A stretch of DNA of 38,929 nt from a virus: the UHGV virus genome UHGV-0094961. One strand, 5' to 3'. Within the stretch, counting starts at the first letter, position 1; every line of letters begins with the position of its first letter. The notes beneath the pieces are model-generated. The model saw only the letters and a list, made by a program, of their open reading frames with translations, did not search any database and was not told the DNA's origin. Below, in pieces: positions 964-37,420 of this stretch. A program made the translations under genes and the position numbers.

Positions 964-1123
964 GTTATACTACGAGGGGAAACACGATGAACTTGAAACT
1001 ATTCTGGATGCGCTGCGTGAACGAGCACCCAAAACACATCGAAGAACGGTTGAGCATTTGGATTCTCTCATTCACGACAATGCTATGCTGGATGTAGTGG
1101 GGGAGATTCAGGTATGGGAGTGA
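920..1123 (+). CDS. hypothetical small protein
   Basis: ATG at 920 with AGGAG about 10 nt upstream; overlaps exonuclease 3' end in another frame; 68 aa. Start chosen inside track ORF 851..1123. Confidence 0.4.
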   Translation: MAKMSAKEMSLRAIELYYEGKHDELETILDALRERAPKTHRRTVEHLDSLIHDNAMLDVVGEIQVWE

Positions 1124-1521
1124 GCACACCTTGTATAGACCACGGGCGAAAGGGGTGGCCAAATACTGGGTTCCTATCCGCGTGGGTTCTTATTGATGGT
1201 AAACGCCAATCTACAACCGCACACAGGAAAGCACACTATGAGCACACAGGGGAGTGGCCTGAGGTAGTACAGCACACCTGTGGAAATCCTCGCTGCATTA
1301 ACCCCGAGCACTTGCAGGGAGGGACCCACAAAAGCAAAGCAGCAAAGGGCTCCGGCAGCGGTCGCTCACGTTTGAACGAAGGTACGGTGCGTTATCTGCG
1401 GCAAATACACATTCCCGGGGACCGGGAATGGGGTAGCAACGATATAGCTAGACGTCTAGGTATGGCCCACAGTGCAGTGTATCGTATGTTAAGAGGGATT
1501 ACATGGCACTGCGTAAAATAA
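1114..1521 (+). CDS. HNH homing endonuclease
   Basis: HTCGNPRCINPEHL motif typical of HNH endonucleases; GGAGA RBS; N-terminal CIDHGR shared with paralog at 36980. Confidence 0.75.
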   Translation: MGVSTPCIDHGRKGWPNTGFLSAWVLIDGKRQSTTAHRKAHYEHTGEWPEVVQHTCGNPRCINPEHLQGGTHKSKAAKGSGSGRSRLNEGTVRYLRQIHIPGDREWGSNDIARRLGMAHSAVYRMLRGITWHCVK

Positions 1522-1925
1522 CCCGCGCACAGATTCGCTCTGTTGCTATTAAGCTTGCCAAAGACCAGGGGGGCATATGCCCCCTTTGTGGCAAACCTTT
1601 GGACTTCACAATCAAGGGGGTAACTGGTGATTCTATTGTCGTTGACCACGATCATATTACTGGGCGTATTCGGGGTGCTCTTCATCGCTCGTGCAATGGA
1701 GGGGAAGGCAAAGTGGCATCTGCCGCTGGGCGCTGGATTGTTGGTAGCATGCAATCTTCTGGGGCTATTGCTGAATCTCTACGCAGGGTCGCCGATTACT
1801 TAGACCGTGAACCCACGGATATGCTATACTATACGCACAAGTCGCCGGAAGAATTGGCACAGGTACAGAAGCTCAAGGCCCGCAAGGCCCGGGCACGACG
1901 CAAAGCACGGGAGACTATTAAATGA
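1503..1925 (+). CDS. endonuclease VII-like (Holliday junction resolvase family)
   Basis: CPLCGKP ... VDHDHITGRIRGALHRSCN, a Cys pair plus DHDH motif as in T4 endonuclease VII family; start overlaps upstream gene. Confidence 0.6.
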   Translation: MALRKITRAQIRSVAIKLAKDQGGICPLCGKPLDFTIKGVTGDSIVVDHDHITGRIRGALHRSCNGGEGKVASAAGRWIVGSMQSSGAIAESLRRVADYLDREPTDMLYYTHKSPEELAQVQKLKARKARARRKARETIK

Positions 1926-2383
1926 GCAAAGTCAAGGTTGGGGATGTGGTGAGGCGTTGGGCACAATACCGCACGCTAGATTGGGCAGAGTTCTGCATGG
2001 GGCTACGTGTGGCTTATGGTGACTCGTTCACCATTACAGCGGTGCTTGATGGGGGCGTAATCCTTGATGGTTGTAACGGCCATCTGTGGGACCCTTGCCA
2101 CTTTGAGGTAGTCAGCATATCAAGCATTCAGGAAAGTACGCCCAAAGCTCCAGACGCAGTAAATTCACCCAAACACTATCAGTTCTTCCCGGGCCTGGAG
2201 GCAATTGAGGTGATTGCACGCAGTATGACGAAAGAGCAGTTCTACGGATACTGCCTGGGGAACCGGCTCAAGTACAGACTGCGCGCCGGGAACAAGGATA
2301 AGCTGGAACAAGACATTGCCAAGTCCGACAAGTACTCAGAACTATACGAGCAACACAGAGGTAAGTGCATTGACGCCAAGTGA
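1922..2383 (+). CDS. DUF3310-like phage protein
   Basis: SPKHYQFFPGLEAIEVI...CLGNRLKYRLRAGNK resembles the conserved core of DUF3310 phage proteins; ATGA overlap with upstream stop. Confidence 0.5.
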   Translation: MSKVKVGDVVRRWAQYRTLDWAEFCMGLRVAYGDSFTITAVLDGGVILDGCNGHLWDPCHFEVVSISSIQESTPKAPDAVNSPKHYQFFPGLEAIEVIARSMTKEQFYGYCLGNRLKYRLRAGNKDKLEQDIAKSDKYSELYEQHRGKCIDAK

Positions 2384-2524
2384 GTGGTGCCACGGGGTGT
2401 GGTAGAAAGCAGTAGAGCGGGGAGACGAACGCGCCGCTAAAGACTACCTGGAGATGTACAATCTCTGGGTAAGTCGCAATCAGTAGTTAGAAGTACCGGA
2501 CATAACCAAGGAGACTAAGCGCCT

Positions 2525-4993
2525 ATGATTAGCGCCCTGAATACGGTTGTAGTACCAGAGGAAGCACTGGTGAAACGCCAGCTGGAGCTCGAAGAGACCT
2601 ATAAGATTCGCGGAATCGAGCGGGCACGTAAGCTGATTACGGACGCATTGCAGAACGGCGGGATTATGAACCTGCCGATGACGCAGCGTATGCTCACCTC
2701 GGCATATGAGGTGGCTGCTGCCGCTATCGACGAGATGCGAAACGTCAAAGTCCCGGGCATTGGTGGTAAGTACCGCCGGTTCCTGCGCTTAGTCCCCTTG
2801 GATGTCCTGACCACACTGAGCCTGTGCACAATGTTTGAAGCGTTTAGCGTCGCCCCCGGCGAGTCTGCTAGTCGCCGCCAGACTGCGCAGGCGGTAATGT
2901 CCGCACTGGGCCGGAACGTGCAGTCAGAGCTACTGGCTCTGCAGTTACGCAACGTAGCCCCAGCGTACATGGACCGAGTATATGAGTATCTCACAGAGCG
3001 CCGTACGAAGTCCCCTACGCACATCCTGCGTACGCTCCGTGCCAGTGCCGAGAATGTGCACTATGGGCACGAGCCTTGGACCAATGCCCAGAACATCTCC
3101 GTAGGGCGTCTGCTGTGTGCCGCGGTGTTTGAGACTGGCTTGTTCCAGTGGAAGACAGGTAGCGGGAACCTGAGCATGCTCTACCCGGCTGATGACGTTA
3201 TGGGGGCCTTCCAGAAACTGGTGGAATCTGCCGACACTGTAACGATGAAGCCGCCTATGCTGGTCCCCCCGGTGCAGCACACCACTATGTGGGATGGTGG
3301 GTACCTTACTCCTATCGACAACCGCGGTACGTACCATAACTCGCACATCGACCGCTCCAGGCTGCGTGAAGTGGCGGAAGCATTTAAGTCCGCGGATGGC
3401 ATCAAGAAGGCGCTTAATAAGGCACAGGAAACCCCATACCGTATTAATAAGCGCATACTGGAACTGGTGCAAGAAGCACGGGCCCTGGGTATTGGGATAG
3501 GTATGCCCCGCTCAATACCGGAGCCGAAGCCTGAGTGGTACTTGGATGGTGTACCAAAAGAGAACTACACCGAAGAAGAACTGGACCGCTTCGGTGAGTG
3601 GAAGACGCGTATGTCCCTGTGGTACAGTGCTGACCGTAAGCGTGTGTCGCAACTACGCAGCCTTCTGACTACGTTGGAGATGGCAGAGGAATTCAAAGAT
3701 GAGAAAGCCCTGTACTTCCCGACTTGTGTGGACTGGCGCTACCGCCTGTACTTCAAGTCCTCGTTGCACCCGCAGGGTTCTGATTTGCAGAAGGCTCTGC
3801 TGGAATTCGGTAGAGGTAAACCTCTTGGAGAGAGAGGGTTGTTCTGGCTTAAAGTGCATGTCGCCACTTGCTTTGGTTATGACAAAACCCTATTCGAAGA
3901 CCGCGCAGATTGGGTGGATAAAAATATGGCAGTTGTCCGCTCAGTTGCAGAGAATCCATTTGATTCGGACGCTTTTAAGCAGGCCGATTCACCGTGGTGT
4001 TTCTTGGCAGCAGTGCTCGACCTGGTGGCTGCTCTGGATTCTCCGTGCCCAGAAGAGTACATCTCCAGAACTCCGGTTGCTATGGACGCCACAAACTCAG
4101 GTGGACAGCACCTCTCAGCGCTCCTGAGAGACCCTGTAGGCGGTCGTCTGACGAACCTGTACTGGGAAGGTAACGACAAGAAAGCGGACCTGTACATGGA
4201 CGTGAAGCGCCGCACGGATGAGAAGGTGATACTGGACCTGGACAAGGAGGATTTCGTTATCCAGAGCACGTACTGGAGAGAGAACGAAATCACCCGCAGC
4301 ATGACCAAGCACCCAAGTATGACCTACTTCTACAGCGCCACGGTGCGTAGCTGCAGCGACTACATCTTTGAAGGCGCTTGCGCTGAGGGATACGAGGGTA
4401 CCGATACTAACAGTCTGTGGAACCTGTCGTGCTACCTGGCACCGCGTATGCGCGCCGCTATAGAGGAGGCAAACCCCGCTGCTGCGGCAGTTATGGGGTA
4501 CTTGCAGAATCTCGCTAGACGCGTACCGGCAAGCCAGCACCTGCAGTGGTATACGCCGCTGGGCGGGCTCGTAATGAACCGTTACACGCAGCGTGAAGAA
4601 GTGCGTGTACGTATTGACTGCATGAACCTGTCAGCGGTACTGGTACACAACCGGGACTTCAAAACTTGTAACAAGCGCAAGGCAGCCTCCGGGATTGCCC
4701 CAAACTTTGTGCATAGCCTGGACAGTACGCACTTGATGATGGTGCTCTGCGCTGCGGAGGGGTTGGACATTGTGCCTATTCACGACTCGCTGGCTACTCA
4801 CGCAGCTGACGTCGACACTATGCATAGGCACATCCGTGAGCAGTTTGTGCGTCTATATGAAGAGAATGACCTGCTTGGCGATATTACTCGGGCAGCGGCA
4901 GCAGCCGGGGCAGACTTGACGGACCTGGACATGCCAGAGGTGGGCACTTTGGACATCCGGCAAGTGCTAGAATCCCCGTTCTTCTTCTGCTAA
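2525..4993 (+). CDS. single-subunit DNA-directed RNA polymerase (T7-like RNAP)
   Basis: 822 aa; PVAMDATNSGGQHLSALLRD (T7 motif DGSCSGIQHFSAMLRD) and PIHDSLATH (T7 HDSFGT); AAGGAG RBS 11 nt upstream. Confidence 0.9.
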   Translation: MISALNTVVVPEEALVKRQLELEETYKIRGIERARKLITDALQNGGIMNLPMTQRMLTSAYEVAAAAIDEMRNVKVPGIGGKYRRFLRLVPLDVLTTLSLCTMFEAFSVAPGESASRRQTAQAVMSALGRNVQSELLALQLRNVAPAYMDRVYEYLTERRTKSPTHILRTLRASAENVHYGHEPWTNAQNISVGRLLCAAVFETGLFQWKTGSGNLSMLYPADDVMGAFQKLVESADTVTMKPPMLVPPVQHTTMWDGGYLTPIDNRGTYHNSHIDRSRLREVAEAFKSADGIKKALNKAQETPYRINKRILELVQEARALGIGIGMPRSIPEPKPEWYLDGVPKENYTEEELDRFGEWKTRMSLWYSADRKRVSQLRSLLTTLEMAEEFKDEKALYFPTCVDWRYRLYFKSSLHPQGSDLQKALLEFGRGKPLGERGLFWLKVHVATCFGYDKTLFEDRADWVDKNMAVVRSVAENPFDSDAFKQADSPWCFLAAVLDLVAALDSPCPEEYISRTPVAMDATNSGGQHLSALLRDPVGGRLTNLYWEGNDKKADLYMDVKRRTDEKVILDLDKEDFVIQSTYWRENEITRSMTKHPSMTYFYSATVRSCSDYIFEGACAEGYEGTDTNSLWNLSCYLAPRMRAAIEEANPAAAAVMGYLQNLARRVPASQHLQWYTPLGGLVMNRYTQREEVRVRIDCMNLSAVLVHNRDFKTCNKRKAASGIAPNFVHSLDSTHLMMVLCAAEGLDIVPIHDSLATHAADVDTMHRHIREQFVRLYEENDLLGDITRAAAAAGADLTDLDMPEVGTLDIRQVLESPFFFC

Positions 4994-4998
4994 AAATT

Positions 4999-5017
4999 TA
5001 ATGTTACAGGAGTAGGA
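4999..5017 (+). promoter_or_regulatory. conserved 19-nt motif TAATGTTACAGGAGTAGGA (copy 1), candidate phage-RNAP promoter
   Basis: Exact 17-nt core ATGTTACAGGAGTAGGA present three times in window; this copy sits immediately after the RNAP gene, before the late module. Confidence 0.4.
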
Positions 5018-5458
5018 ATGAAGTTAAAACACACTAGTAAAACTTCCGACTACACTCTCAAGGTTCTGTATAAATCTGACGACGTTACAGACGCAGTGAA
5101 GCAACTGCACGAACTGGGCCATGGCATTAGTCGGGGCCTGGCTCCAGAGCAGCACTACTGGAGGGTGTTGGGAAGTATACTGGGTAAACAGTATATACTA
5201 GGAGTCTATGACTCCAAAGGCGACTTAGTCGGTGCTGTCAGCTACTACCCAGAGGCTGTAGAGGACTGTCATTACGTAGAGCCTGTGCTGTATACAGACT
5301 TCTTCGTATTGAAACCGGACAACGGCGCGGCAGTGTCTGTGATTATGCAGGGCCTGCACGCAATAGCCAAGTGCATGCGCGCTGGGCGTATCACCATTAG
5401 CCGAAGCACGTCCAGTAACACGTACAAAACAACTTATCATTTAGTGAGGTCAGAATGA
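5018..5458 (+). CDS. hypothetical protein
   Basis: 146 aa ORF directly after RNAP; AGGAGTAGGA immediately 5' of ATG; no recognisable motif. Confidence 0.5.
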   Translation: MKLKHTSKTSDYTLKVLYKSDDVTDAVKQLHELGHGISRGLAPEQHYWRVLGSILGKQYILGVYDSKGDLVGAVSYYPEAVEDCHYVEPVLYTDFFVLKPDNGAAVSVIMQGLHAIAKCMRAGRITISRSTSSNTYKTTYHLVRSE

Positions 5459-5718
5459 GTGGTGGTTTAGGTAGACTGTTAGGCAAGGCCACGGATATGC
5501 TGGGCCTTACTGACAACGCAGGATTAGAGGCGCAGCAGCGCTTGGCAGAGCAACAGGCCAGCGCAGCTAAACAACAGGCTGCCTTAGAGGCTAATAGCGC
5601 CGCAGATAATATTGCTGAGATTGACCCTGCAGGGGCTGCCTCTGCATCTGCAGATGCAATTACGTCTGAGCAGAAGAAACGGCGACAAGCAGGGCAGAGC
5701 AATCCTCTGGGCCTGTAA
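5455..5718 (+). CDS. hypothetical protein (Ala/Gln-rich)
   Basis: 87 aa ORF, ATGA translational coupling with upstream gene; sits just before portal gene. Confidence 0.45.
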   Translation: MSGGLGRLLGKATDMLGLTDNAGLEAQQRLAEQQASAAKQQAALEANSAADNIAEIDPAGAASASADAITSEQKKRRQAGQSNPLGL

Positions 5719-5727
5719 GGGGGTAGC

Positions 5728-7323
5728 TTGGAACAAAAAGCAACATTAGCAGAACTCTTTAAGAAGGACCAGGACGCGGGCGTCTTGGATGCCTCTGAGA
5801 AGTTCGCGCAGTGGACACTCAGCACTATCTTTACCCGGGACGATTCCCTGGACGGTAGACGCAGACCGCTAGAGCGTGACTACCAGAGCACCGGAGCGCA
5901 GCTGGTCAACACTGCAGCCACTAAGATTGTAGGCGCACTGTTCCCGCAAGGCGCTAGCTTCTTCCGGTTCTCCAAGAGTTCGGACCTGGACGAGTTCATT
6001 AGTTCGCTGGGTAGTGCAGCTACAGCAGAATCTAAGCTGGCCGAGGTCGAGAACACAGCGTCACAGAAAGTATTTGAGAAAGACGGTTATGCTGCGAAGT
6101 TGCAAGCTGTGAAGCTGCTGCTGGTTACAGGTAACGCGTTGGAGTATATTGATGAGCGGACAGGTAAATCCATCGTCTACTCAGTCCGTAACTTTACCGT
6201 TCGAAGGGATGGCAGCGGGAACGTCCTGCGACTCATTATCAGAGAGCGCGCAAGCGTCCAGGACCTGCCAGAGAGTTTCCAGAACACCTTCTACCGTGAC
6301 AAAGACCCATACGGCGACGTTGATATCTACACTGCCGCTTGTCGCAAGGTTAAGCGGACAGAGGAAGGCGTAGAGGTAGTAAGCTACGAGGTGTACCAAG
6401 AAGCAGACGGACACCACATTGGGGACAGCAGCACCTATCCTGAGCTGGAGCTTCCATACAACGTGCTGGTGTGGAACCTTGTTAGCGGTGAGCACTACGG
6501 ACGCGGCTTGGTAGAGGACTACGCCGGGGACTTCGCTAGATTATCAGTGCTGTCAGAAGCGTTAACTAACTACGAAGTTGAGTCTGCGCGGTTAATTCCG
6601 CTGGTTGACGCAAGCTCCGGGCTGGACGTGGACGAATTCGCAACGTCGGAGACGGGCGAGGCTGTGCAGGTGGGTGGTGGTGGTTCCAACGGGAACAACA
6701 AGTCCCCAGTCACTGCTTACGAGGGCGGCTCTGCCCAGAAGATTCAGTGGATTGCCAGCAACATTCAGATGCTCGAACAGAAACTGTCTCGTGCGTTTAT
6801 GTACACCGGTAACTCACGGCAAGGTGAGCGTGTCACGGCTTACGAGATTCGCCAGAATGCCAAAGAGGCGGAAGCCGCTATGGGCGGTGGGTTCAGTATC
6901 CTGAGCGACACCTGGCTGCGTAAGCTGGCGTACCTGTATACTGCACTGGTGTATCCTCGCTTTAAGCTTTATCTCAGCGAAGGTGTAGTGAACATCAACG
7001 TTACGGTGGGTACTTCTGCACTGGCTAAAGCCGCGGCGGCGGACAAGCTGTTAGAGGCGGCACAATCCATGCAGCTGGCTATCCCGGTGCTTGAGCAGAT
7101 TACTCCGCGCTTCAACAAAGATGCGTGCGTAGATTGGTACTTCGACGCCTACGGCATCGTCAGCGAGCCGTTCATGTACACCGAAGAGCAGCTGCAGCAG
7201 AAGCAACGGGTTCAGGATGCGTCTGCCGATGTATCCGCGGGTGTGGCGCAGGACCAACTCCAGGGCTTGACAGCAGCAGACCCGACAGTAGCAGGTAAGC
7301 AGCTGGGCTTATTACCAAGTTAA
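5728..7323 (+). CDS. head-tail connector (portal) protein
   Basis: 531 aa; TTG start with AAGGGGG RBS; NSRQGERVTAYEIRQ and LLLVTGNALEYI segments resemble T7 gp8 (QRTGERVTAEEIR, LVVAGNVLLYL). Confidence 0.85.
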   Translation: MEQKATLAELFKKDQDAGVLDASEKFAQWTLSTIFTRDDSLDGRRRPLERDYQSTGAQLVNTAATKIVGALFPQGASFFRFSKSSDLDEFISSLGSAATAESKLAEVENTASQKVFEKDGYAAKLQAVKLLLVTGNALEYIDERTGKSIVYSVRNFTVRRDGSGNVLRLIIRERASVQDLPESFQNTFYRDKDPYGDVDIYTAACRKVKRTEEGVEVVSYEVYQEADGHHIGDSSTYPELELPYNVLVWNLVSGEHYGRGLVEDYAGDFARLSVLSEALTNYEVESARLIPLVDASSGLDVDEFATSETGEAVQVGGGGSNGNNKSPVTAYEGGSAQKIQWIASNIQMLEQKLSRAFMYTGNSRQGERVTAYEIRQNAKEAEAAMGGGFSILSDTWLRKLAYLYTALVYPRFKLYLSEGVVNINVTVGTSALAKAAAADKLLEAAQSMQLAIPVLEQITPRFNKDACVDWYFDAYGIVSEPFMYTEEQLQQKQRVQDASADVSAGVAQDQLQGLTAADPTVAGKQLGLLPS

Positions 7324-7337
7324 CAACAGAGGCATAG

Positions 7338-8180
7338 ATGGATAACGTAGAAAACGGTCAGAACGTAGAAACTACACAGGTAGAGAACCAAGGTGGCCCT
7401 AAGATTCCGGGCCTAGGTGCTCCCCTTAGCGCCCCGAACAATCAAGGCGTGCAGGATGCACAGACCCCTACCCAGCAGCAACAGGGCAAAGACTCCCCTG
7501 ACCCTGCTAAGATTCCTCTGGATATCGAAGCCCTAAAAGCGGCCCCGGATAAGGGTGGCGATAGCGCTAAAGAGCAGCCCCAGGAGCTGGCTAAGACAGG
7601 CAACCCGACGATTGATGCCGGTGTAGCTATGTTGCAGAAAGTCTCTGGGTTAACTGACTCTGATATGGTGCGGGCACTTGGTAAGGCCCTGGAGTATCAG
7701 GACCCTAACCTAATCGATACGGCCTTCATTAAGGAACGTTTCGGAGAGCACGCTGCTTATGCAGAGTTGCTGGCTAAAGCGTACCTGGAAGACCAGGTTG
7801 GTCAAGCCACCAAAGCAGTACAAGAAGCTTACGATATCGTGGGCGGTAAGGAGAACTGGGAGGTAGCAGCGCAGCTGTTTAATTCCAAGGCCCCTGAACC
7901 TCTGCGTAACGCAGCTCGTGTACTCGCTAACTCGGGTGAGCTCAAGCAGGCCGCTGAGTTGGTAGCAAGCTTCTGCCGGGATATGGGTCTTATCAAGACA
8001 CAGAACCCAATGGTACGAGGCGTGGCCAGCAACAATGCACTGTCTGCTGCGGAATTCCGCGCAGAATATACCAAACTCCGTCAGGAAGCGGGCAACCGTA
8101 GCTTGGCGTCTCCACAGTTCAGTCAACGTTATAACGATTTGCTCGCACGCCGTGAAGCTGGTAAGCGCGTAGGTCTTTAA
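7338..8180 (+). CDS. capsid assembly scaffolding protein
   Basis: 280 aa acidic, low-complexity protein between portal and major capsid genes (T7 gp9 position); RBS present. Confidence 0.65.
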   Translation: MDNVENGQNVETTQVENQGGPKIPGLGAPLSAPNNQGVQDAQTPTQQQQGKDSPDPAKIPLDIEALKAAPDKGGDSAKEQPQELAKTGNPTIDAGVAMLQKVSGLTDSDMVRALGKALEYQDPNLIDTAFIKERFGEHAAYAELLAKAYLEDQVGQATKAVQEAYDIVGGKENWEVAAQLFNSKAPEPLRNAARVLANSGELKQAAELVASFCRDMGLIKTQNPMVRGVASNNALSAAEFRAEYTKLRQEAGNRSLASPQFSQRYNDLLARREAGKRVGL

Positions 8181-8205
8181 TTTTATTTATAAAGGAAACT
8201 AAAGC

Positions 8206-9225
8206 ATGGCCAACACTATTTATAATGGCAACCTGACTCGTCCGCACTGGGGCGGCGCAGACTCCGACGTAGACGTTCACCTGGAAGTGTACCAGAACGA
8301 AGTGGATACCCGCTTCCAGTACCGGGCTCTATTCCTGGGCCTCTCCAGCCAGCGCTCTATCAGCGGTTCCAACACCTACCGTATTGACCGACTGAACACC
8401 TCCTCGGTGAAAGGTCGTCGCTCCGGTGAGGCGCTGGATAGCACTCCGGTCCGTAACGATAAGATGATTATCGTGGTGGATACGGTGCTGTATATCCGTA
8501 ACCCGATTGACTATCAGGATGACTGGACCGGTCCGGACTTCCTGACCGAGATGGGTCAGAACAACGGCTCTGAGTTCGCAGAGGTCTTCGACCAGGCGCA
8601 CCTGATTCAGCTCATCAAGGGCCGTTCCTGGGTTGCGCCGGCGCACCTGAAACCGGCGTTCAACGACGGTATCGAGGTAGGCGCAGCTATCCTGGTTCCG
8701 GGTACCACCACCGCCACTCAGCTGACCCAGGCTGAGATGGAGGCGAACGCCATGAACATCAACCTGGCCCACAAGGCTGGTATTGACGAACTCATCAAGC
8801 GTAAGACCCCGCTGGCGGACATGATTACCCTGGTGGACGTCGATACCTATTCGCGTCTGCTGGAGCATCCGAAGCTCCTGAACCTGGACTTCGGCGCGTC
8901 CAACAATGATGGTTACAAAGACCGACGTGTAGTGAAGATGAACGGTGTGCCTGTAGTTGAGTGCACCGAGTTCCCGACCGCTGCTGGTACGCACCCGCTG
9001 GGCTCCGCTTACGCCGTCACCCCTGACGACGCGCTGTGCCGTATGGTGACTTTCAGCAAGTCCAAGACCCTGGTGACTGTTGAGGCTAAGCCGTTCACCT
9101 CCCGTATCTGGGATGATGAGCGAGAGTTCAGCAACGTGCTGGACTGCTACGCAATGTACAACATCGGTCTGCGTCGTCCGGACACCGCTGCAGTGACCAA
9201 GTTCACCTTCACCACCAAGTCCTAA
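8206..9225 (+). CDS. major capsid protein
   Basis: 339 aa; C-terminal CYAMYNIGLRRPDTAAVTKF resembles T7 gp10A AKYAMGHGGLRPEAAGAVVF; position and length canonical. Confidence 0.9.
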   Translation: MANTIYNGNLTRPHWGGADSDVDVHLEVYQNEVDTRFQYRALFLGLSSQRSISGSNTYRIDRLNTSSVKGRRSGEALDSTPVRNDKMIIVVDTVLYIRNPIDYQDDWTGPDFLTEMGQNNGSEFAEVFDQAHLIQLIKGRSWVAPAHLKPAFNDGIEVGAAILVPGTTTATQLTQAEMEANAMNINLAHKAGIDELIKRKTPLADMITLVDVDTYSRLLEHPKLLNLDFGASNNDGYKDRRVVKMNGVPVVECTEFPTAAGTHPLGSAYAVTPDDALCRMVTFSKSKTLVTVEAKPFTSRIWDDEREFSNVLDCYAMYNIGLRRPDTAAVTKFTFTTKS

Positions 9226-9419: not shown

Positions 9420-9468
9420 ACAGTTAACGGCAATTGAACCTGCCTAGTTCCGTTTGATGAGGAAACCT

Positions 9469-9801
9469 ATGAAAGATATCCGTAACATTATAACCGGTAT
9501 GACCCGCATGGAGGCCATAACCCAAGGTGGTGTAGAGTACGGCACAGGGGTGTGGCACAAACGCTGCACTGGGGACAGTACAGCCAATGCTCTGCGCATC
9601 ATCTCAGAGGCCATGTTAAAGCAGGCTGTACCTGTTAGGGTTGAGCAGTACGTAGTAAGCGGCACCCACACCCGGGAACCTAAGCACGTGTTTGATTTGT
9701 GCCGATATCTGGTGGATGTTATGGGTCTTCGGGGTTTTACGTTTAACGCAGCAGCTAGAACTGTTGAGTGTAACGTGTTCGAGCCTGTTAACAAACAGTA
9801 A
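9469..9801 (+). CDS. hypothetical protein
   Basis: Start placed at ATG 9469 (GAGGAAA RBS) inside track ORF 9454..9801; 110 aa. Confidence 0.45.
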   Translation: MKDIRNIITGMTRMEAITQGGVEYGTGVWHKRCTGDSTANALRIISEAMLKQAVPVRVEQYVVSGTHTREPKHVFDLCRYLVDVMGLRGFTFNAAARTVECNVFEPVNKQ

Positions 9802-9877
9802 TACGCGCCCCTGGTGCCTTCGTGCATTCTTATGATTTTTGTTTTCATTTTCTTCTAAGCAAGTGAGGCATACTAGG

Positions 9878-9920
9878 ACCTGGTGCCTTCGGGTGCCCGG
9901 GGCTTTTTTTTTTTTTTTTT
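9878..9920 (+). terminator. putative rho-independent terminator (GC-rich structured segment with UUCG loop candidate, then T17)
   Basis: 17 consecutive T at 9904..9920 after a GC-rich segment; lies downstream of the capsid module where T7-like phages carry their major terminator. Confidence 0.5.
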
Positions 9921-9965
9921 GTCCCTGTCTTAAGGGTCCAAGGGGTCTTTAATAGAGGAACAAAT

Positions 9966-10526: not shown

Positions 10527-10535
10527 GGAGAGGTT

Positions 10536-13485: not shown

Positions 13486-13502
13486 CTTAAGAGGAATATT
13501 AA

Positions 13503-23439: not shown

Positions 23440-23450
23440 GGAGAGTACAC

Positions 23451-23633
23451 ATGGCAATTGCAAAAGCAACCTCAGCGCAACAGCAGGAGCTGTTGCGTCA
23501 GCTGAACATTCTCGGTAAGGACCTGTATGCTATCCTTACGCAGCCGCAGAACGTGGCCCAGACTGGTGCTGCCTTCGATACCAAGATTGCTGCGCTTGAA
23601 GCCGCGGTGGCCGCAGTGAAGGCTGCTAGCTAA
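23451..23633 (+). CDS. hypothetical small protein
   Basis: 60 aa; TAAGGAG RBS; Ala-rich helical-looking. Confidence 0.4.
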   Translation: MAIAKATSAQQQELLRQLNILGKDLYAILTQPQNVAQTGAAFDTKIAALEAAVAAVKAAS

Positions 23634-27437: not shown

Positions 27438-27705
27438 GGGTTTTAGGGCACTATATACACTACTTAATACTAGTCCTTACTAGTCCCTACTAGGCACTCA
27501 CTAGTATGGCCCTGTGCCTACGTAGTAGGCTGCCATAACTACATAGTCACCGCATCACTACGTTCCTTCACTTACGTTACGTCACTACGTTCTGCTTTAT
27601 GTAGTATTAGATAGTATTGGCTAGACGTGGCTAGTATTGGCTACAGCCAGTGTCAGCACAGTGCTATCCCTAGTGGCTATCCCTATAATATATAAGGAGT
27701 TATAC

Positions 27706-28260
27706 ATGTTACCATCTAGTCGGGCTACGGCTAAAGCCACTGGTAGTACATACTACTACACAGGGAAGCACTGTAAGTACCAGCACACGGCAAAGCGCCT
27801 CACCAGTTCAGGGGAGTGCTCCGAGTGCTTTAAGATTAGGAGTACCAGCCCAGCTACTAAGGAGCGTATGCGGGGGTACCATAAGGTTTATCAGGTACGT
27901 AAGGCAGAGGCCTTGAGAGAGTACCGTAAGACACGCCGACCTAAGCACATTATGACAGAGGAGCAATTACAGCGTAAGGTTCGCCACAATGCGCGATACC
28001 GTGCTGCGCGTACTCAATCCGTACCCTCATGGTATGGCGAGTGGGGTGAGTTTGTTATGTTGGAGGCTATCGCTTTAGCAGCCGAGAGGGCGGAGTGTAC
28101 TGGCATAGCGTGGCATATTGACCATATGCTACCGCTAAAGGCTAAAGAGGTGTGCGGCTTACACTGTGCGGGGAACATTCAGGTGATACCCGCAACGCTT
28201 AATACACATAAGTGTAACAGGCTGCTATTCACGGAGCCGTTGGGGTGGCTAAAGGCATAA
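27706..28260 (+). CDS. HNH endonuclease with N-terminal Cys-rich motif
   Basis: Start set at ATG 27706 (AAGGAG RBS 6 nt upstream) inside track ORF 27637..28260; C-terminal WHIDHMLPL...GLHCAGNIQVIPATLNTHKCN is an HNH-type motif; N-terminal YYYTGKHCKYQH...GECSECF looks like a zinc-binding motif. Confidence 0.6.
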   Translation: MLPSSRATAKATGSTYYYTGKHCKYQHTAKRLTSSGECSECFKIRSTSPATKERMRGYHKVYQVRKAEALREYRKTRRPKHIMTEEQLQRKVRHNARYRAARTQSVPSWYGEWGEFVMLEAIALAAERAECTGIAWHIDHMLPLKAKEVCGLHCAGNIQVIPATLNTHKCNRLLFTEPLGWLKA

Positions 28261-28266
28261 ACTTGA

Positions 28267-28309
28267 GGTAATACAGTACTATAAATGCTGTATTACCTTT
28301 TTTTTTTTT
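28267..28309 (+). terminator. rho-independent terminator
   Basis: Perfect 10-bp stem GGTAATACAG / CTGTATTACC with 11-nt loop followed by 12 T, directly after the HNH stop codon. Confidence 0.75.
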
Positions 28310-28446
28310 ATAAAAAGTGCTTGCTTTTTTAAATCTGCTAGGTGTATATTTATCCCATCGAAAGCGATACGGTCTACCGGGTAGCTCTAGATTCCAGAGT
28401 CAACTGGATAAGTAGACAGCCTGATAAGTCATATGAAAAACAGGTA

Positions 28447-28475
28447 TTGACAATAGCAGTAAACGCTTTTATAGT
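28447..28475 (+). promoter_or_regulatory. near-consensus sigma70 promoter (TTGACA-17-TATAGT)
   Basis: Consensus -35, 17-bp spacer, -10 with one mismatch to TATAAT; in ORF-poor early region. Confidence 0.45.
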
Positions 28476-28724
28476 TTGAACCATGTTGCGGAGCAGTGTA
28501 GCGCCTAAAGGTGCTCTGACCACTAACCCTAGATACATGATAGTAGTAAGCGTGCCGGACGTTATCACCGGGGTTCTGAGACAAACCACACTGTCGAGGC
28601 GAGAGCAGCTCGCTCCTCTGAATCGAGGGAACAAGGCGCGGAGTGTATCCCGCAAAGAGCATATAACATAGCGTAGCAGTAACAAGGCTGCGCTAGATTA
28701 TGTTCTCTGAGAGGTAAGAAGATT

Positions 28725-29716: not shown

Positions 29717-29747
29717 GCCTATAGCGTCCTACGGGACGCTATGTGAA
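29717..29747 (+). promoter_or_regulatory. conserved hairpin motif copy B (GCCTATAGCGTCC-TACG-GGACGCTATGTGAAT)
   Basis: Perfect 9-bp stem, 4-nt loop; 25 nt upstream of ATG 29772; two compensatory substitutions relative to copy A. Confidence 0.4.
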
Positions 29748-29771
29748 TGCAACTGGCGTATGAGGTGGCAT

Positions 29772-30249: not shown

Positions 30250-30257
30250 GGTTGGGC

Positions 30258-30437: not shown

Positions 30438-30643
30438 TTAAGTATGACGTGTACAAGCGCCCGAACGGGCTGTTCTACCGAGTGGCGATACACGACATGT
30501 TCCATACTCGGGCGGAACTCTTTGCTCCCCATAGCAATGTGTGGGTTAAGTCTGCGCTAAAGGTGGGGGATCTGGTGTCCAGTCCCAAGTCGTCCCTGCT
30601 GGCCCGCAACGTGGTATTCAAGGACAGCGTATGCTCACAGTAG
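30434..30643 (+). CDS. hypothetical small protein
   Basis: 69 aa; AAGGGG RBS; ATGA coupling with upstream gene. Confidence 0.45.
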   Translation: MIKYDVYKRPNGLFYRVAIHDMFHTRAELFAPHSNVWVKSALKVGDLVSSPKSSLLARNVVFKDSVCSQ

Positions 30644-31119
30644 ACGAAACAGCGCTGCTGTGCTTGATTCAGGAATATCTCTACGTCGACGCCACCTCGA
30701 CCACTGGTTTGCGTTGGAAGAAAGCACCTAGAGCACGCACACCGGTTGGAGCGGAAGCGTTCACAAGCAAGAGTAACGGGGGCTACTACCACGGAATGCT
30801 TCGGGGCCGGGACTTAAAAGCTCATAGGGTGGTTTTCGCCCTTACCAACGGGTACTTTCCACCAGTAGTTGACCATATCAACGGGCAGCGGGATGATAAT
30901 CGTCCTGAAAACCTCCGCGCGACCACTGCCCTAATCAATAACCACAACCGAGAGGCGAAGGGGTATTACCCATTTCGAGGAGGATACATGGCCCGCATAG
31001 CAGCAAACGGGAAGCAGATGTATCTTGGGGTGTACCCCACAGAAAATGAAGCCCGCGAAGCATACTTAGCGGCTAAAGCTAGGCTGCACCCAACCACTCC
31101 TACTGGGAGGCTCACATGA
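30631..31119 (+). CDS. HNH endonuclease with AP2-like DNA-binding domain
   Basis: VDHINGQRDDNRPENLR (HNH motif) followed by GYYPFRGGYMARIAANGKQMYLGVYPTENEAREAY (AP2-like). Confidence 0.7.
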   Translation: MLTVDETALLCLIQEYLYVDATSTTGLRWKKAPRARTPVGAEAFTSKSNGGYYHGMLRGRDLKAHRVVFALTNGYFPPVVDHINGQRDDNRPENLRATTALINNHNREAKGYYPFRGGYMARIAANGKQMYLGVYPTENEAREAYLAAKARLHPTTPTGRLT

Positions 31120-31460
31120 TGACGGTAGATGAAGCTGCTGTTTTCATGTGGAAGCTGCTGGAAACGCAGGGCAAGTGCGGGTGCCCTTGGGGAACATTCA
31201 AAGAGGTTCCTAATGAACTCAAGCAAATCATACCGGTCGAGCGCAGACTCCTCCGTGTTCGTAGGCAGGACTCTACGGTGGTGCTCACAACCTATCGCGA
31301 GTATACAGAATCTGCCGCGCGGCAGTTGCAAGAGCACATTCAGTTCGATGTGGTTGCAGCACTGCTACGGTACGGGTATCGTGGAGCATATACAAGATTT
31401 AGGGCGGCAGTACGGGCATATTATAAGCAAGCGCAGATCGCTGCATGGTACGCACGCTGA
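31116..31460 (+). CDS. hypothetical protein
   Basis: 114 aa; GGGAGG RBS; protein-like composition, unlike the overlapping frame. Confidence 0.5.
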   Translation: MMTVDEAAVFMWKLLETQGKCGCPWGTFKEVPNELKQIIPVERRLLRVRRQDSTVVLTTYREYTESAARQLQEHIQFDVVAALLRYGYRGAYTRFRAAVRAYYKQAQIAAWYAR

Positions 31461-31509
31461 CTTAGTGGTTGGCGATGAACTCAAAGAACCTATTCAGGGG
31501 CAAACTAAA

Positions 31510-33186
31510 ATGCAAGAGACTAACACAGCACCTATCGAATGGAAAATCGTATTACCGGAAGGTGCAAACGCACTGCCGATTAAAGAATCAATGTATTCCA
31601 GCGGTGATTACTGGACCCCGTTCCAGGACTTGCAAATGCAAGGGGAGGACCATCCCCACACTGAGGGTCCGCTGCAGGTGCTTATGGGTCTCCGCACTGT
31701 CAGTGCGCACACTCCAGGCTTAGAGGTGACTATAGGCGGGGCACTGCACCCAGAGTATCGCGAATCAACGATGACGCTCGGCCCGTTGCAAAAGGTGGAC
31801 CTGTACCGGTCCGGAACTTTCTGCGAACTCTTTGAACCGGTGCGAATCACCATAGACAGCAAGTTCTGGGAACGCCGCCGCGACTTCTATGAGGGCGAGG
31901 ATGTAGTGGTTGAGCGCGTAGTTGCTTGCGTCGAAGAATTCACAGGTTACAAGGTGCACAAGCAGGCCGTGCAGTTATTTGAGCGCATCATGCTTGCACC
32001 AGAAGAGCAGCAGCGCCGCTTATGCACTGGCTACGATTACGGCCGCCACGCCCGCGATGGCAACTTAGCTGCGCTGCTCATGAAGTTGCACGGATTCATA
32101 GTATCTAGATTCGCCGTGCCATTGGGCTTTGGTTTCCGCAACGGTGAGCCTATCGTGATGCTGGGGCAGCCGCGGATGCACAAGGACTTCGCCGCAGTTA
32201 CCGAGTACCGTTGTGTGGAGATGCGCGTAGGTAAGTGGCTCGCTAACTACTACGGCAATGGCGTAGACTTCCGCGATGCTATCGAAGACCTCAAGGCTAT
32301 GAACGTAGAGCCTACAACGTACCTGTGCAAGACCGAGCAGGAATGGTACGACTCCTACGAGAATGGCCCGGGTAGCTGCATGAGTGGATACTCATTTGAG
32401 CATAGCCCGGTGCGGGTGTATGCTACTACCAGCCACGGGCTGCCGGACAACGGGCTGCGCCTGTTCATCCAGTACACCGGGGAACTGTTCGGGGATGACT
32501 TCGAAGTGCAGGCACGGGCAATCGTTAACACAGAAACTAACGAGTACGTCCGCGCTTACGGCGACGCTGCGGATGCAATCCTGCGGGGGCATGGGTACAC
32601 CAAAAACATTGAGTGTCTCGAAGGGGTAATGCTGGCGCGAATACCGCACCCAACATACAACGGCGCAGTGCTGATGCCATACCTAGATAGCAGCCAGTGC
32701 GGCGTAGATGAGTATGGGGATGATGCCTTTGTAATCCGTGATGCTTATGAGTACGAGGCACAAGACTCAGAAGGATACATCTACGTAGGCACTGAGTCTG
32801 CTGGGTGCTGCTGCTGTGAATGTCGCTACTCTGTAGATGACATGCAGGAGACCGCAGATGGTGATATGGTCTGCGACGGCTGCGTAGAAGAAGGGGATTT
32901 TGTGTACGTAGTTGGGCGTGATGGTCTGCATAATCGCTGGAGCTGCACCTGGTCTGATTACCACGACGCCTATGTATACGACGAGGACATAGAGCGCTGC
33001 GAAGTAGAGGGTGTAGTGCACGACCAAGAGGAACTGGTGTTTGCACAGGACCGGCAAGTGCTTATTGAACACGCAGAAGAACACCCAGTGCACGGGTTAA
33101 TTCTCACTGAGCATGCAGCTGATTGCTTGGGAGAGAAGTACCTGGGAAACGATGAAGATGAAGAAGAAGCAGAGGAGGCAGCTTAA
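31510..33186 (+). CDS. large acidic early protein with Cys cluster, unknown function
   Basis: Long ORF (track 31129..33186); first about 380 nt in this frame is Ser/Arg/Cys-rich and overlaps a better ORF, so start placed at ATG 31510 (uncertain); contains SAGCCCCECRYS...MVCDGC and acidic tail DEDEEEAEEAA. Confidence 0.45.
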   Translation: MQETNTAPIEWKIVLPEGANALPIKESMYSSGDYWTPFQDLQMQGEDHPHTEGPLQVLMGLRTVSAHTPGLEVTIGGALHPEYRESTMTLGPLQKVDLYRSGTFCELFEPVRITIDSKFWERRRDFYEGEDVVVERVVACVEEFTGYKVHKQAVQLFERIMLAPEEQQRRLCTGYDYGRHARDGNLAALLMKLHGFIVSRFAVPLGFGFRNGEPIVMLGQPRMHKDFAAVTEYRCVEMRVGKWLANYYGNGVDFRDAIEDLKAMNVEPTTYLCKTEQEWYDSYENGPGSCMSGYSFEHSPVRVYATTSHGLPDNGLRLFIQYTGELFGDDFEVQARAIVNTETNEYVRAYGDAADAILRGHGYTKNIECLEGVMLARIPHPTYNGAVLMPYLDSSQCGVDEYGDDAFVIRDAYEYEAQDSEGYIYVGTESAGCCCCECRYSVDDMQETADGDMVCDGCVEEGDFVYVVGRDGLHNRWSCTWSDYHDAYVYDEDIERCEVEGVVHDQEELVFAQDRQVLIEHAEEHPVHGLILTEHAADCLGEKYLGNDEDEEEAEEAA

Positions 33187-34232: not shown

Positions 34233-34234
34233 TT

Positions 34235-34881: not shown

Positions 34882-35662
34882 AGCGTGCAAGCGCCTGGCC
34901 GTGGGGCAGAGGGCACGCTTTCGGTGCTGCGGCAGGGACGCCGCCGGGGTGCTCTACAATAACCCGGATGCCTGGGAATACTATTGCCACCGCTGCAAAC
35001 AGGTGGGCAAGGAGCACAAGCAGTACCAGCGCATACGGTTACAGGAAGAGCCGAGGGTGCAGCCCTCTGCACCTGCAGATGCAATTTGCATTAGCCAAGC
35101 GCCTGCGGAAACGCAGAGTTTTATTTACGGATTCCTGACCACAAAGGGAATCATGCCTGAAATGGTGGAGGATGCAGAATGGAGCAAAGAGAAACAGCGG
35201 ATAATCTTCCGTGTCGGAAGCGCTGCCCTAGGCCGTGCAGTGCATGCTCGGCAGCAACCGAAGTGGGTAATGTACGGCCAGCCAATAGCTTTCGCTGTCG
35301 CGGCACCTGCCGTAGCACCAGCTGTAGCTGCGGCCGCACCTCTAAAGGTCGTGCTCACCGAGGACTTACTCTCAGCCCGGAAGATACAGCACGCAGTTAC
35401 GAGCTACAGTGCGTTGAACGTGCAGGCTATAGCTATGCTGGGTACACGCTTGCCCACGCCGCTGAGGGCTTGGCTGATACAGAATCGCCCGGAAGTGATT
35501 CTGATGCTGGACAATGACCCAGCAGGGCACGCTGGAGTAGCGGCGGCGCGCCGCGCACTGCGTCCGTTCATGCAGTGTCGTGAGCATTACTTCGCTGCGG
35601 ACCCGAAGGATGCAGAAATCAAAGAGATTCTGGAGGCTATAATTGGACCTAATAGTTGTTAA
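34862..35662 (+). CDS. DNA primase (zinc-ribbon plus TOPRIM)
   Basis: N-terminal Cys motif FRCCGRD...YYCHRCKQ and TOPRIM-like VILMLDNDPAGHAG, as in the T7 gp4 primase domain. Confidence 0.7.
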   Translation: MDQPWLRACKRLAVGQRARFRCCGRDAAGVLYNNPDAWEYYCHRCKQVGKEHKQYQRIRLQEEPRVQPSAPADAICISQAPAETQSFIYGFLTTKGIMPEMVEDAEWSKEKQRIIFRVGSAALGRAVHARQQPKWVMYGQPIAFAVAAPAVAPAVAAAAPLKVVLTEDLLSARKIQHAVTSYSALNVQAIAMLGTRLPTPLRAWLIQNRPEVILMLDNDPAGHAGVAAARRALRPFMQCREHYFAADPKDAEIKEILEAIIGPNSC

Positions 35663-35666
35663 GGCA

Positions 35667-36923
35667 ATGTGCACGCAGAAGGTTTGGAACCGACTGCGAG
35701 AGCAGATTCCTAAGTCGATGCTTGCGCCGGATACGTCGAACCTTCTGGACTGGGTGGGGCTGTACTGGAACACGTACCCGGAGCACCAGGAGGTGCGATG
35801 GGATGCGATGCAGAGCATGCTCAACCTCCGGGCGGGGCACCTATCCCGGGAAGAGCGGGTAATCATGGACGAGCTTATGCGGGGAGTACAAGCCGTGCCG
35901 CAGGATTCTGTGGTGGGGATTGTCCAGACCCTGAATGAGCTGGCCTACAGCGGGGAGGTAGCAGCGCTGACGCAGCGCTACCAAGACGGTGAGGAGATTG
36001 ATTACCTGCTGGAAATGAAGCACCTACAGCGCAAGTACGGTGACGGCGCTGCGGTGCATGATTCGCTGCTTGAATGGGAGAGCGGTAGTGTTGACGAAAT
36101 ACTTGCCGCGACTGACGAGAGCGGCGGTCTTAAACTGGGCGTGTTCGAGCAACTCTCTAGCAACATCCGGGGCCTACGCGGCGGGGACTGCATCGCAGTG
36201 GCTGCCCCTGTGGACTCTGGTAAAACTAGCCTGCTTGCTGCTATTGCTGTGGACTTTGCTGAGCAGATGCAGCAGCAGCCGGAAGTATACGGGGGCCGCC
36301 CGATTCTCTGGCTGGTTAACGAGGGTCCGGCGACGCGTACGGTGCCGAGGGTATATCAAGCGGCGCTGCACTGGACTCTGGCAGAGATTAAGGACAGGCA
36401 CAGTAAGCAAGAGTTCGTGCCAGCCTACCTCAAGAAAGTAGGCAGGGCTGACCGGATTCGTGTTAAGGCTGCGCACTCCTTGACGATGGCGCAGATATCC
36501 ACGCTCATGGAGGAGATGCGCCCTGCGGTAATCATCATCGACATGGTGGCGAACATCCGTGGCGGCACTATGGAGACCGAGCACCAGAACCTCGAGGCGA
36601 AATGGCAGGAGCTGCGCATACTTGGGTGCGAGAACGACTGCGCTATTGTAGGCACTATGCAGCTTTCACTCGAAGGTTACAACATGCTGTTCCCGCCGCT
36701 CACCGCTATGAAGCAGAGCAAGATTGGCGTACAGGGTGCCCTGGACTTGGCTATTATGATGGGATGCTTGGACAGAAACGAGCAGCCGCACATGCAAAAC
36801 GTCCGTGGTATCAGTACTCCGAAGAACAAGATGGCACTGTCTGGTAAAGAGTCGCTACTGCAATTCGAGGTGGGATTCGAGCCGGGTCGTTGCCGCTTTG
36901 ACGAGGGCCAGATTAACCGGTGA
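35667..36923 (+). CDS. replicative DNA helicase (DnaB/T7 gp4 helicase-like)
   Basis: Walker A AAPVDSGKTSLL, later VIIIDMVANI (Walker B-like); first ATG at 35667 after primase stop (track ORF starts at TTG 35643). Confidence 0.8.
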   Translation: MCTQKVWNRLREQIPKSMLAPDTSNLLDWVGLYWNTYPEHQEVRWDAMQSMLNLRAGHLSREERVIMDELMRGVQAVPQDSVVGIVQTLNELAYSGEVAALTQRYQDGEEIDYLLEMKHLQRKYGDGAAVHDSLLEWESGSVDEILAATDESGGLKLGVFEQLSSNIRGLRGGDCIAVAAPVDSGKTSLLAAIAVDFAEQMQQQPEVYGGRPILWLVNEGPATRTVPRVYQAALHWTLAEIKDRHSKQEFVPAYLKKVGRADRIRVKAAHSLTMAQISTLMEEMRPAVIIIDMVANIRGGTMETEHQNLEAKWQELRILGCENDCAIVGTMQLSLEGYNMLFPPLTAMKQSKIGVQGALDLAIMMGCLDRNEQPHMQNVRGISTPKNKMALSGKESLLQFEVGFEPGRCRFDEGQINR

Positions 36924-36928
36924 CTTCC

Positions 36929-36958
36929 CTAGCGCCTTCTCTGAGGGCGCTATGTAGG
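36929..36958 (+). promoter_or_regulatory. hairpin motif copy C (TAGCGCC-9 nt loop-GGCGCTATGTAGG)
   Basis: 7-bp perfect stem followed by ATGT, 20 nt upstream of ATG 36980; shares stem-GCTATGT architecture with copies A and B. Confidence 0.3.
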
Positions 36959-36979
36959 TACATGGTATAGGAGGGCTAA

Positions 36980-37420
36980 ATGGAAATGAGTGAGTGTATC
37001 GACCACGGACGTTCGCGCAGCCTATCCCCAGAAGGCTACGCCTTGGTAGCTAAACCCGGAGTTCGCAGTCGTTGCGTACACCTGCACAGGCTGGTGCTGG
37101 CGGAGAAGTTAGGGGTGCCGCTTAAAGCTCTAGATGGAGTAGTTGTCAGGCACACTTGCGACAACCCACGGTGCATCAACCCAGAGCACCTAATACCTGG
37201 AACCCTAGCAGATAACAACAAGGACCGAGCAGAGCGCGGCCGTAGTGCTAAGCGGGTGCCTAGCCGCCAACGCCTAACTCCTAAAGACTGTGAAGATATC
37301 TGTGCCAAGCATACGCCGAGGATTTATGGCGTTACCCATCTGGCCCGCGAGTACGGCGTAGACACTAACGTCATATACAAAGTGCTAAGAGGAGAGTACC
37401 CTTGTCAACAACCAGTATAA
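36980..37420 (+). CDS. HNH homing endonuclease (paralog of 1114..1521)
   Basis: HTCDNPRCINPEHL and N-terminal CIDHGR shared with ORF 1114; GGAGGG RBS; sits between helicase and DNA polymerase genes. Confidence 0.75.
   Translation: MEMSECIDHGRSRSLSPEGYALVAKPGVRSRCVHLHRLVLAEKLGVPLKALDGVVVRHTCDNPRCINPEHLIPGTLADNNKDRAERGRSAKRVPSRQRLTPKDCEDICAKHTPRIYGVTHLAREYGVDTNVIYKVLRGEYPCQQPV

Follow-up and report, generated by a model that had tools for sequence, protein, structure and literature searches.

Free-standing HNH endonuclease genes at polymorphic gene junctions of a Drulisvirus genome: features consistent with intron-less homing

The virus genome UHGV-0094961, analyzed here as one strand of 38,929 nucleotides (nt; hereafter, the window), contains four genes with confirmed or probable HNH endonuclease signatures (HNH1 to HNH4) and one endonuclease VII-like gene (endoVII). 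The five open reading frames (ORFs; 1114–1521, 1503–1925, 27706–28260, 30631–31119 and 36980–37420) are intact and, as all long ORFs of the window and all window features described below, lie on the plus strand. By its sequence, the window is most of the genome of a Drulisvirus, a KP34-like Klebsiella podovirus (Autographiviridae, Slopekvirinae), matching KpV71, KpV41, OU509534 and many other Drulisvirus genomes at 91–93% nt identity over > 94% of its length (megablast). It is a permuted, incomplete genome copy (38.9 kb out of ~44 kb), with the genome end and terminal repeat located at ~26946. The missing ~5 kb comprises the remainder of the DNA polymerase gene up to just upstream of the exonuclease gene, so that the nuclease genes counted here are a minimum for the full genome; within the window, tblastn with 19 HNH proteins, taken from the window itself and from relatives, revealed no further HNH or HNH_3-like ORF. 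Two comparisons underlie the analysis. Each ORF with ~700 nt of flank per side was searched by megablast against 50,697 phage records, full presence being at least 80% query coverage (flanks were seen in 246–388 records, with ~250 matching Drulisvirus records). In addition, 13 relatives were compared full-length by projection of flanking anchors (KpV71, KP34, pKp11, Kp_Pokalde_001, BUCT-H1, PTF1, phiK2044, RCIP0106, RCIP0036, OU509534, PWKp3, SAA231, Cap62).

Three of the four HNH genes score above the gathering cut-off (24.8 bits) of the Pfam family HNH_3 (PF13392). HNH1 (1114..1521; 135 amino acids, aa), a free-standing HNH_3 gene with a C-terminal helix-turn-helix, reaches 39.6 bits (E 3.9e-10). 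HNH3 (30631..31119), an HNH_3 gene of the I-HmuI kind whose tail is probably an AP2 DNA-binding domain, reaches 50.8 bits (E 1.3e-13) and matches PHROG 99 (E 1.4e-44), and HNH4 (36980..37420), a free-standing HNH_3 / zinc His-Me gene of PHROG 59 with a C-terminal helix-turn-helix, reaches 28.7 bits (E 1e-6). HNH2 (27706..28260) bears only a probable motif, suggested by a PHROG 1035 match and an invariant signature; thus, the HNH motifs that an earlier sequence-only reading had listed in all four ORFs are backed by Pfam in three of them, while NCBIfam returned no match for any of the four. HNH3 aligns to I-HmuI (PDB 1U3E) at E 7e-4 with the D-H...N...N pattern kept (VVDH...ENL...INN) and, judging from this alignment, appears to possess a complete His-Me set (general-base His, structural Asn, metal-binding Asn). 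The AP2-like domain previously proposed for it persists as a weak likeness: the AP2 score (PF00847; 15.4 bits, E 0.023) is below the cut-off of 33.3, the PDB match of the tail to the AP2 protein WRI1 is weak (E 0.009), and PHROG 99 spans the region. The predicted catalytic set of HNH4 is likewise complete when aligned with family members (RH...NPEHL...ADN), and a PDB sequence search with HNH4 gave no meaningful match. HNH1 and HNH4, earlier described as clear paralogs, are indeed homologous (36% identity, E 1e-17), with CIDHG and NPRCINPEHL and the same C-terminal helix-turn-helix in both. Nevertheless, each has closer relatives in other phages (48–52% for HNH1, 47–50% for HNH4), so that they represent one family rather than recent duplicates; a recent duplication within this genome is ruled out by their 36% identity and by these closer homologues.

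The endoVII gene (1503..1925) had been correctly recognized in the same reading, its product scoring above the cut-off (23.6 bits) of the Pfam family Endonuclease_7 (PF02945; 44.9 bits, E 1.1e-11) and belonging to PHROG 423; its translation shows a CPLC...DHDH...R...HRSCN motif (N-terminal zinc/DHDH/R/N). Its inclusion in the nuclease load did not hold, since endoVII is found in 13 of 13 relatives with a ratio of non-synonymous to synonymous substitution rates (dN/dS) of ~0.1, and is a core gene that stands outside the mobile load. It probably encodes the Holliday-junction resolvase of this phage, a role proposed for the endonuclease VII resolvase clade in podoviruses without T7 endonuclease I (PMC6083498).

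The HNH genes show the opposite, patchy distribution. Most of the ~250 matching Drulisvirus records have both flanks and lack the respective ORF, and close protein copies of each gene occur in ~5–9% of these genomes: 12 records for HNH1 (at least 80% aa identity), 14 for HNH2 (at least 60%), 22 for HNH3 (at least 80%) and 18 for HNH4 (8 at 90% or above and 10 more at 60–80%). Flanked junctions are covered at the presence threshold in 11/249 (HNH1), 3/388 (HNH2), 21/246 (HNH3) and 11/263 (HNH4) records. Across the 13 full genomes, the presence patterns of the four genes are uncorrelated: HNH1 is carried by RCIP0106, OU509534 and PWKp3; HNH2 by KpV71 and RCIP0036; HNH3 by Kp_Pokalde_001, BUCT-H1, PTF1 and phiK2044 (with nine relatives lacking it); and HNH4 by pKp11, PTF1, OU509534, SAA231 and, in a diverged form, BUCT-H1. 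Precise empty sites are observed for three of them, namely 19 nt for HNH1 (clean in KP34, pKp11, Cap62 and SAA231), 41–53 nt for HNH3 and 40 nt for HNH4 (in Cap62). Sporadic presence at a fixed site with precise empty sites, as looked for in homing elements, is, thus, seen for HNH1, HNH3 and HNH4, while HNH2 is sporadic only. Distant homologues (< 60%) are dispersed over phages of Acinetobacter, Pectobacterium, Salmonella and Xanthomonas, T7-like and other phages, those of HNH2 also spreading over unrelated phage groups. The presence/absence comparison at these junctions, which had been suggested from the sequence, therefore bears out the prediction that the insertions mark sites polymorphic between relatives; the four ORFs were not found as universal core genes at identical positions. 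The same data leave hardly any probability for the HNH proteins being conserved parts of DNA metabolism or packaging (a terminase partner or a replication/repair nuclease). HNH proteins beside terminase genes assist packaging in some cos phages, and the placement of the HNH genes among replication genes would fit such a function. Yet each of them is absent from > 90% of close relatives, with only endoVII behaving as a core gene, and none adjoins the terminase genes (20907–23065), for which reason a packaging-associated role was rejected.

A common architecture is observed at the three precise junctions. HNH1, HNH3 and HNH4 have the same orientation as their neighbors, and each is located at the start of a conserved gene or slightly within it (endoVII, a gp09-like early gene and the DNA polymerase gene, respectively). 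Each takes the ribosome-binding site and ATG of this target gene and provides the latter with a new ribosome site and start, contained in its own 3' end. At the exonuclease/endoVII junction, the inserted DNA, judged against the empty sites, spans ~1118–1502. Element-free genomes read ...GAGATTGAGCTATGGCCCTAAGAAAG at the endoVII start, and this ribosome site with its ATGG serves as the start of HNH1 in the window, endoVII restarting 389 nt downstream behind an AAGAGGG site within the HNH1 3' end. In HNH3, the first 34 nt (30631–30664) are the captured start of the gp09-like gene, identical to KP34 gp09 at 33 of 34 positions, and the inserted DNA (~30665–31154) enters after codon 11 of that gene to yield an in-frame fusion (MLTVDETALLC/LIQEY...) common to all five carriers; the target gene itself (31116..31460; PHROG 6167) restarts after HNH3, overlapping the HNH3 stop.

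The HNH4 junction lies between a DnaB-like helicase gene (35643..36923, assigned by Pfam/PHROG) and the 5' part of the DNA polymerase gene (37420..38929), which runs off the window. Its segment 36970..36989 combines the 3'-end remnant of a gp18-like ORF with the original ribosome site and ATG(A) of the polymerase, now used by HNH4: GGAGGGCTAAATGGAAATGA aligns both to the gp18 end of KpV71, OU509534 and SAA231 and to the polymerase start, so that 20 nt of the gp18-like ORF, normally found ahead of the polymerase, are left in the window. The inserted DNA is ~36990–37408. The Met at 36986 can be identified as the captured polymerase start because OU509534 and SAA231 show entry right after the upstream ATG(A), and this ATG is likely the true start of HNH4. 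In relatives, the polymerase is annotated from an ATG 15 nt upstream of the window ATG at 37420 (ATGACAACCAGTATAATG), and an in-frame TTG at 37402, following an AGGAG inside HNH4, may be the actual polymerase start in the window. The sequence-only reading had taken HNH4, with its TAATG stop/start overlap, for a typical homing insertion. Both the insertion and the overlap (37416–37422) are real, but ACAACCAGTATAATG is conserved in all relatives, those without HNH4 included, so that the overlap belongs to the junction and not to the insert. On its left, this variable junction is bounded by a fixed element, a 7-bp-stem hairpin (~36930–36952) straight after the helicase stop that is conserved in all relatives and carries a terminator annotation in Kp_Pokalde_001. 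In BUCT-H1 (~4931–5400, minus strand), a 71%-identical relative of HNH4 lies 33 nt further into the polymerase gene, whose first 11 codons it continues in frame; this repeats the arrangement of HNH3 with gp09.

Each displaced gene begins with a recoded patch exactly at the insert boundary. In every HNH1-bearing genome, the first 27 nt of endoVII (1503–1529; codons 2–8) carry changes that are nearly all synonymous (8/27 mismatches to KP34 vs. 17/396 further in; over the relatives 8–9/27 vs. 15–21/396, illustrative p ~1e-5), the other allele being present in all nine compared genomes without any HNH gene there. The 39-nt 5' end of the restarted gp09-like gene (31116–31154) differs from the KP34 gp09 5' end at 16 of 39 positions, and the first 30 nt of the polymerase gene (37420–37449) form an alternative recoded allele with 9/30 mismatches vs. 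13–23/701 further in (compared with KpV71, RCIP0106, phiK2044 and Cap62; illustrative p ~1e-7). A longer tract is observed in Kp_Pokalde_001 (18002–18855), which has a different HNH gene (52% identical to HNH1) at the exonuclease/endoVII junction and an endoVII gene whose first ~340 nt are only ~53% identical to those of other drulisviruses, with 95–97% identity in the final 65 nt; this divergent stretch appears to have been imported along with the nuclease gene (co-conversion). The recoded patches and the Kp_Pokalde_001 tract are of the kind looked for as flanking co-conversion and target-site differences in homing. Finally, HNH2, HNH3 and HNH4 are under purifying selection (dN/dS 0.09–0.21 overall, 0.09–0.10 for HNH2 and 0.09–0.21 for HNH4), with neighboring core genes at 0.02–0.2.

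Taken together, these observations lead us to consider it quite probable that HNH1, HNH3 and HNH4 are free-standing HNH_3 homing endonuclease genes that reached their positions by intron-less homing, HNH1 being a decayed member, with HNH2 as a probable mobile nuclease gene and endoVII as the putative resident resolvase. In the mechanism we propose, co-infection with an element-free relative would allow the nuclease to nick or cut the unoccupied allele near the 5' end of the target gene, and recombinational repair off the element-bearing genome would then copy in the nuclease gene together with adjacent donor sequence (co-conversion). The carrier would be protected twice, by the insert that splits the site and by recoding of the first 27–39 nt of the downstream gene. 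HNH1 would probably be a decayed copy that persists by linkage or has acquired another role.

HNH2 fits this scheme less closely. It resides in a variable early-region cassette (27644..28544, as delimited by BLAST breakpoints) that 11 of the 13 relatives lack, with different sequence in its place. In the 184-aa product, a helical middle part separates an N-terminal Cys/His cluster from a C-terminal HNH-type signature, and an alignment of 14 homologues revealed an invariant W-H-x-D-H...G-L-H-C..N.Q..P...N..K.N block of the classical HNH pattern, rendering an HNH motif probable. The protein has no sequence match in Pfam, NCBIfam or PDB (the latter searched with the single sequence and with a profile). 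An AlphaFold2 model built from the 14-sequence alignment has a mean predicted local distance difference test (pLDDT) score of 72 and only 41–65 over the HNH motif; a Foldseek search of PDB with this model, low in confidence over the motif, gave no match below E 2.5. PHROG 1035 (E 6.5e-21) is labelled "endonuclease VII"; this label should not be read as indicating a resolvase, since hhalign found no similarity between the HNH2 family and the endonuclease VII of the window, and HNH2 is without the DHDH / invariant-R pattern of the latter. HNH2 rather looks like a classical HNH protein of a family without a Pfam model, and a mobile nuclease gene is the most likely reading here as well, albeit with less certainty than for the other three.

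As the first gene after the terminal repeat, HNH2 has an AAGGAG site 7 nt ahead of its ATG and is directly followed by an intrinsic terminator (28265..28310; a 14-bp stem, then a T10 run). With this strong terminator, HNH2 would form an early transcription unit of its own, bounded by the terminal repeat and by a sigma-70 promoter (28447..28475, TTGACA-17-TATAGT) that is in part homologous to promoter A2 of phage T7. Such an arrangement brings in a second explanation, by which the nucleases would mainly serve the phage as weapons against co-infecting relatives (marker exclusion, superinfection interference), HNH2 possibly acting on host or competitor DNA, with self-propagation secondary. The early position of HNH2 with its own ribosome site and terminator, selection comparable to that on core genes for all but HNH1, and the discussion of homing nucleases as interference factors between phages in two papers (PMC12654880, PMC12724721) speak for it. 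Each gene is, however, missing from most relatives and Cap62 has none, so that no HNH gene is needed for growth. This explanation is also compatible with homing and predicts the same sequence patterns; we regard it as possible, though unlikely as the principal one. The -35 box of the A2-like promoter and ~50 nt upstream of it (28397–28453) share ~93% identity with the T7 E. coli promoter A2 and also with many T7/T3-like phages, and within drulisviruses this promoter occurs only in the few genomes with the HNH2 cassette, which suggests a module exchanged between phage subfamilies.

The junctions themselves are occupied by more than nuclease genes. In other relatives, the exonuclease/endoVII junction holds unrelated small ORFs, e.g., a 245-bp insert encoding the CPCGSGRKAKNC peptide, and the helicase/polymerase junction holds small ORFs of the gp17/gp18 type. 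The possibility that the alternative 219–245-bp inserts at the former junction are decayed HNH genes was discarded, as they show no similarity to HNH genes. The window is also a mosaic of 0.5–4 kb blocks that are 99–100% identical to differing relatives over a background identity of 85–95%, matching RCIP0106 (1–3000, 10001–11500 and 31501–33000), pKp11 (4001–8500), OU509534 (1501–3000 and 29501–30000) and BUCT-H1 (23001–24000), and these blocks include regions distant from every HNH gene. Such observations, together with the persistence of the probably dead HNH1 in ~12 genomes, would fit a passive exchange, in which ordinary recombination at intergenic hotspots, whether homologous or illegitimate, moves the HNH ORFs as cargo and their own nucleases are uninvolved. 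Against it stand the start-capture architecture repeated in three independent HNH genes with recoded patches at the very insert boundary, the occupation of the same two junctions by several distinct HNH lineages (KP34 gp19 and Pokalde_029 of Kp_Pokalde_001), and the purifying selection on HNH2, HNH3 and HNH4, unexpected for inert cargo. As a full account, we find passive exchange improbable.

Several points nevertheless weigh against intron-less homing as we propose it. Since the junctions also hold non-nuclease ORFs and the genome is mosaic, the pattern is partly accounted for by insertion hotspots and general recombination. The recoded polymerase allele is not exclusive to HNH4 carriers, being found (as a close variant in Kp_Pokalde_001) in three HNH4-free relatives, Kp_Pokalde_001, RCIP0036 and PWKp3. 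For HNH2, neither a clean empty site nor a target was seen among the 13 relatives, nor was a confident structural model obtained with AlphaFold2/Foldseek. The clustering tests used sequence windows picked with the alignments in view, and they compared genomes that are related to one another and hence not independent; their statistics are illustrations of the pattern and no proof of it. Cleavage, target sites and current activity of the HNH proteins are themselves inferred from sequence, and HNH1 is probably catalytically inactive.

The last of these points requires some detail. HNH1 passes the HNH_3 sequence score as a deletion derivative that is missing the metal-binding Asn and the next helix of the beta-beta-alpha motif: K75 takes the place of the conserved Asn and ~15 aa after that position are deleted, with GTHKSK in HNH1 and its 135-aa orthologues vs. 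GTHK(S/T)N or an equivalent in all eight other homologues. The Asn in question binds metal in His-Me nucleases (N62 in T4 endonuclease VII; PMC6083498). The replacement by Lys and the loss of ~15 residues are the reasons for regarding HNH1 as a probably defunct copy. Its dN/dS is 0.23 (vs. PWKp3), the two closest comparisons giving 8 non-synonymous vs. 1 synonymous changes, and it may be either a decaying element like I-TevIII of T4 or a domesticated DNA binder. A more far-reaching and rather doubtful proposal would combine start-codon capture as a general rule for drulisvirus HNH_3 homing genes, which would target the translation-initiation regions of essential replication genes, exploit the ribosome sites of these genes and rebuild recoded starts for them, with HNH1 as a domesticated DNA-binding protein that is not dying. 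If true, HNH1, kept at dN/dS ~0.2 in ~12 genomes, could be an immunity or regulatory factor, or could be moved in trans by other nucleases. Overall, the active intron-less homing envisaged in the sequence-only reading agrees with the distribution, start capture and recoded patches; the word "active" goes too far for HNH1 and represents an inference for the remaining genes.

The heavy nuclease load emphasized in that reading is correct as a count and ordinary for the genus, in which HNH-like loci range from 0 per genome (Cap62) to 6–8 (OU509534, PWKp3) among the relatives; four HNH genes is a typical load (0–8 per genome). The RefSeq record of KP34 has four annotated HNH genes plus an endonuclease VII, and KP34 was originally published with two putative HNH genes (PMC3082699). 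GenBank under-counts HNH4 genes, since intact orthologues are unannotated (SAA231, 9760–10197) or named "hypothetical protein" (pKp11, 13433–13873), and the orthologues of HNH1, HNH2 and HNH4 generally are mostly "hypothetical protein" or unannotated there. One additional ORF of the window (9454–9801), between a small post-capsid gene and the gene for tail tubular protein A, is present in only RCIP0106 and Kp_Pokalde_001 among the 13 relatives and belongs to PHROG 6703 (unknown function), with no Pfam match; its junction looks like a further insertion hotspot because the drulisvirus vB_KpnP_B1 has an HNH gene there.

In summary, the finding is real and its initial interpretation is supported, and the biology is ordinary and of a known type, leaving existing knowledge of homing endonucleases unchanged. 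Its value lies in clear details, start-codon capture and recoded target patches, which offer direct experimental handles. Paired occupied and empty alleles at the 5' ends of gp09, endoVII and polymerase are ready substrates for studying HNH_3 homing, with Cap62 as an element-free reference, in a genus of Autographiviridae where, as far as the searched literature shows, this process is unstudied: for Drulisvirus and KP34-like phages we found annotation-level mentions only and no paper analyzing homing. From a practical perspective, HNH elements are one cause of mosaic structure in the genomes of therapeutic Klebsiella phages, and they mark junctions at which the phages of a cocktail likely exchange DNA.

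A side-by-side comparison with known systems revealed a general agreement as well as some differences. Intron-less homing of free-standing endonuclease genes is established in T4-type phages (PMC2988022, PMC2790892), whose genes mobE, segB and others resemble those of the window in their location between conserved genes or at their edges, patchiness, flank co-conversion and protection by target differences (PMC2988022, PMC2790892, PMC2330249); the persistence of HNH1 is comparable with that of the defunct T4 I-TevIII (PMC2790892). Unlike the T4-type genes, which occupy a separate intergenic unit, the inserts of the window consistently appropriate the start codon of the downstream gene along with its ribosome site, and they do so in a different family, Autographiviridae. 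HNH3 is similar to I-HmuI in its D-H...N...N catalytic pattern; I-HmuI is intron-encoded, whereas HNH3, known here by sequence, is a free-standing gene that begins with 11 codons of its target. With the HNH-AP2 ("IPA-HNH") family, HNH3 shares the order of an HNH followed by an AP2-like domain, the latter sub-threshold in HNH3; HNH-AP2 homing genes cluster by DNA polymerase and other essential genes, with variable presence and in-frame deletions (PMC10448857). In a comparison with the T4 endonuclease VII resolvase clade and the F-CphI "DHHRN" endonuclease clade, the endoVII product exhibits the N-terminal CxxC...DHDH...R...C-N motif of the former; its gene does not belong to the homing genes. 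HNH4 shares 33% identity with T7 gp7.7, and HNH3 has an annotated orthologue in Kp_Pokalde_001. Closest to our case, in the same genus and partly at the same junctions, are the KP34 HNH genes gp19 (between helicase and polymerase), gp24, gp31 and gp36, which represent other lineages (17–26% identity to HNH1) at mostly other positions.

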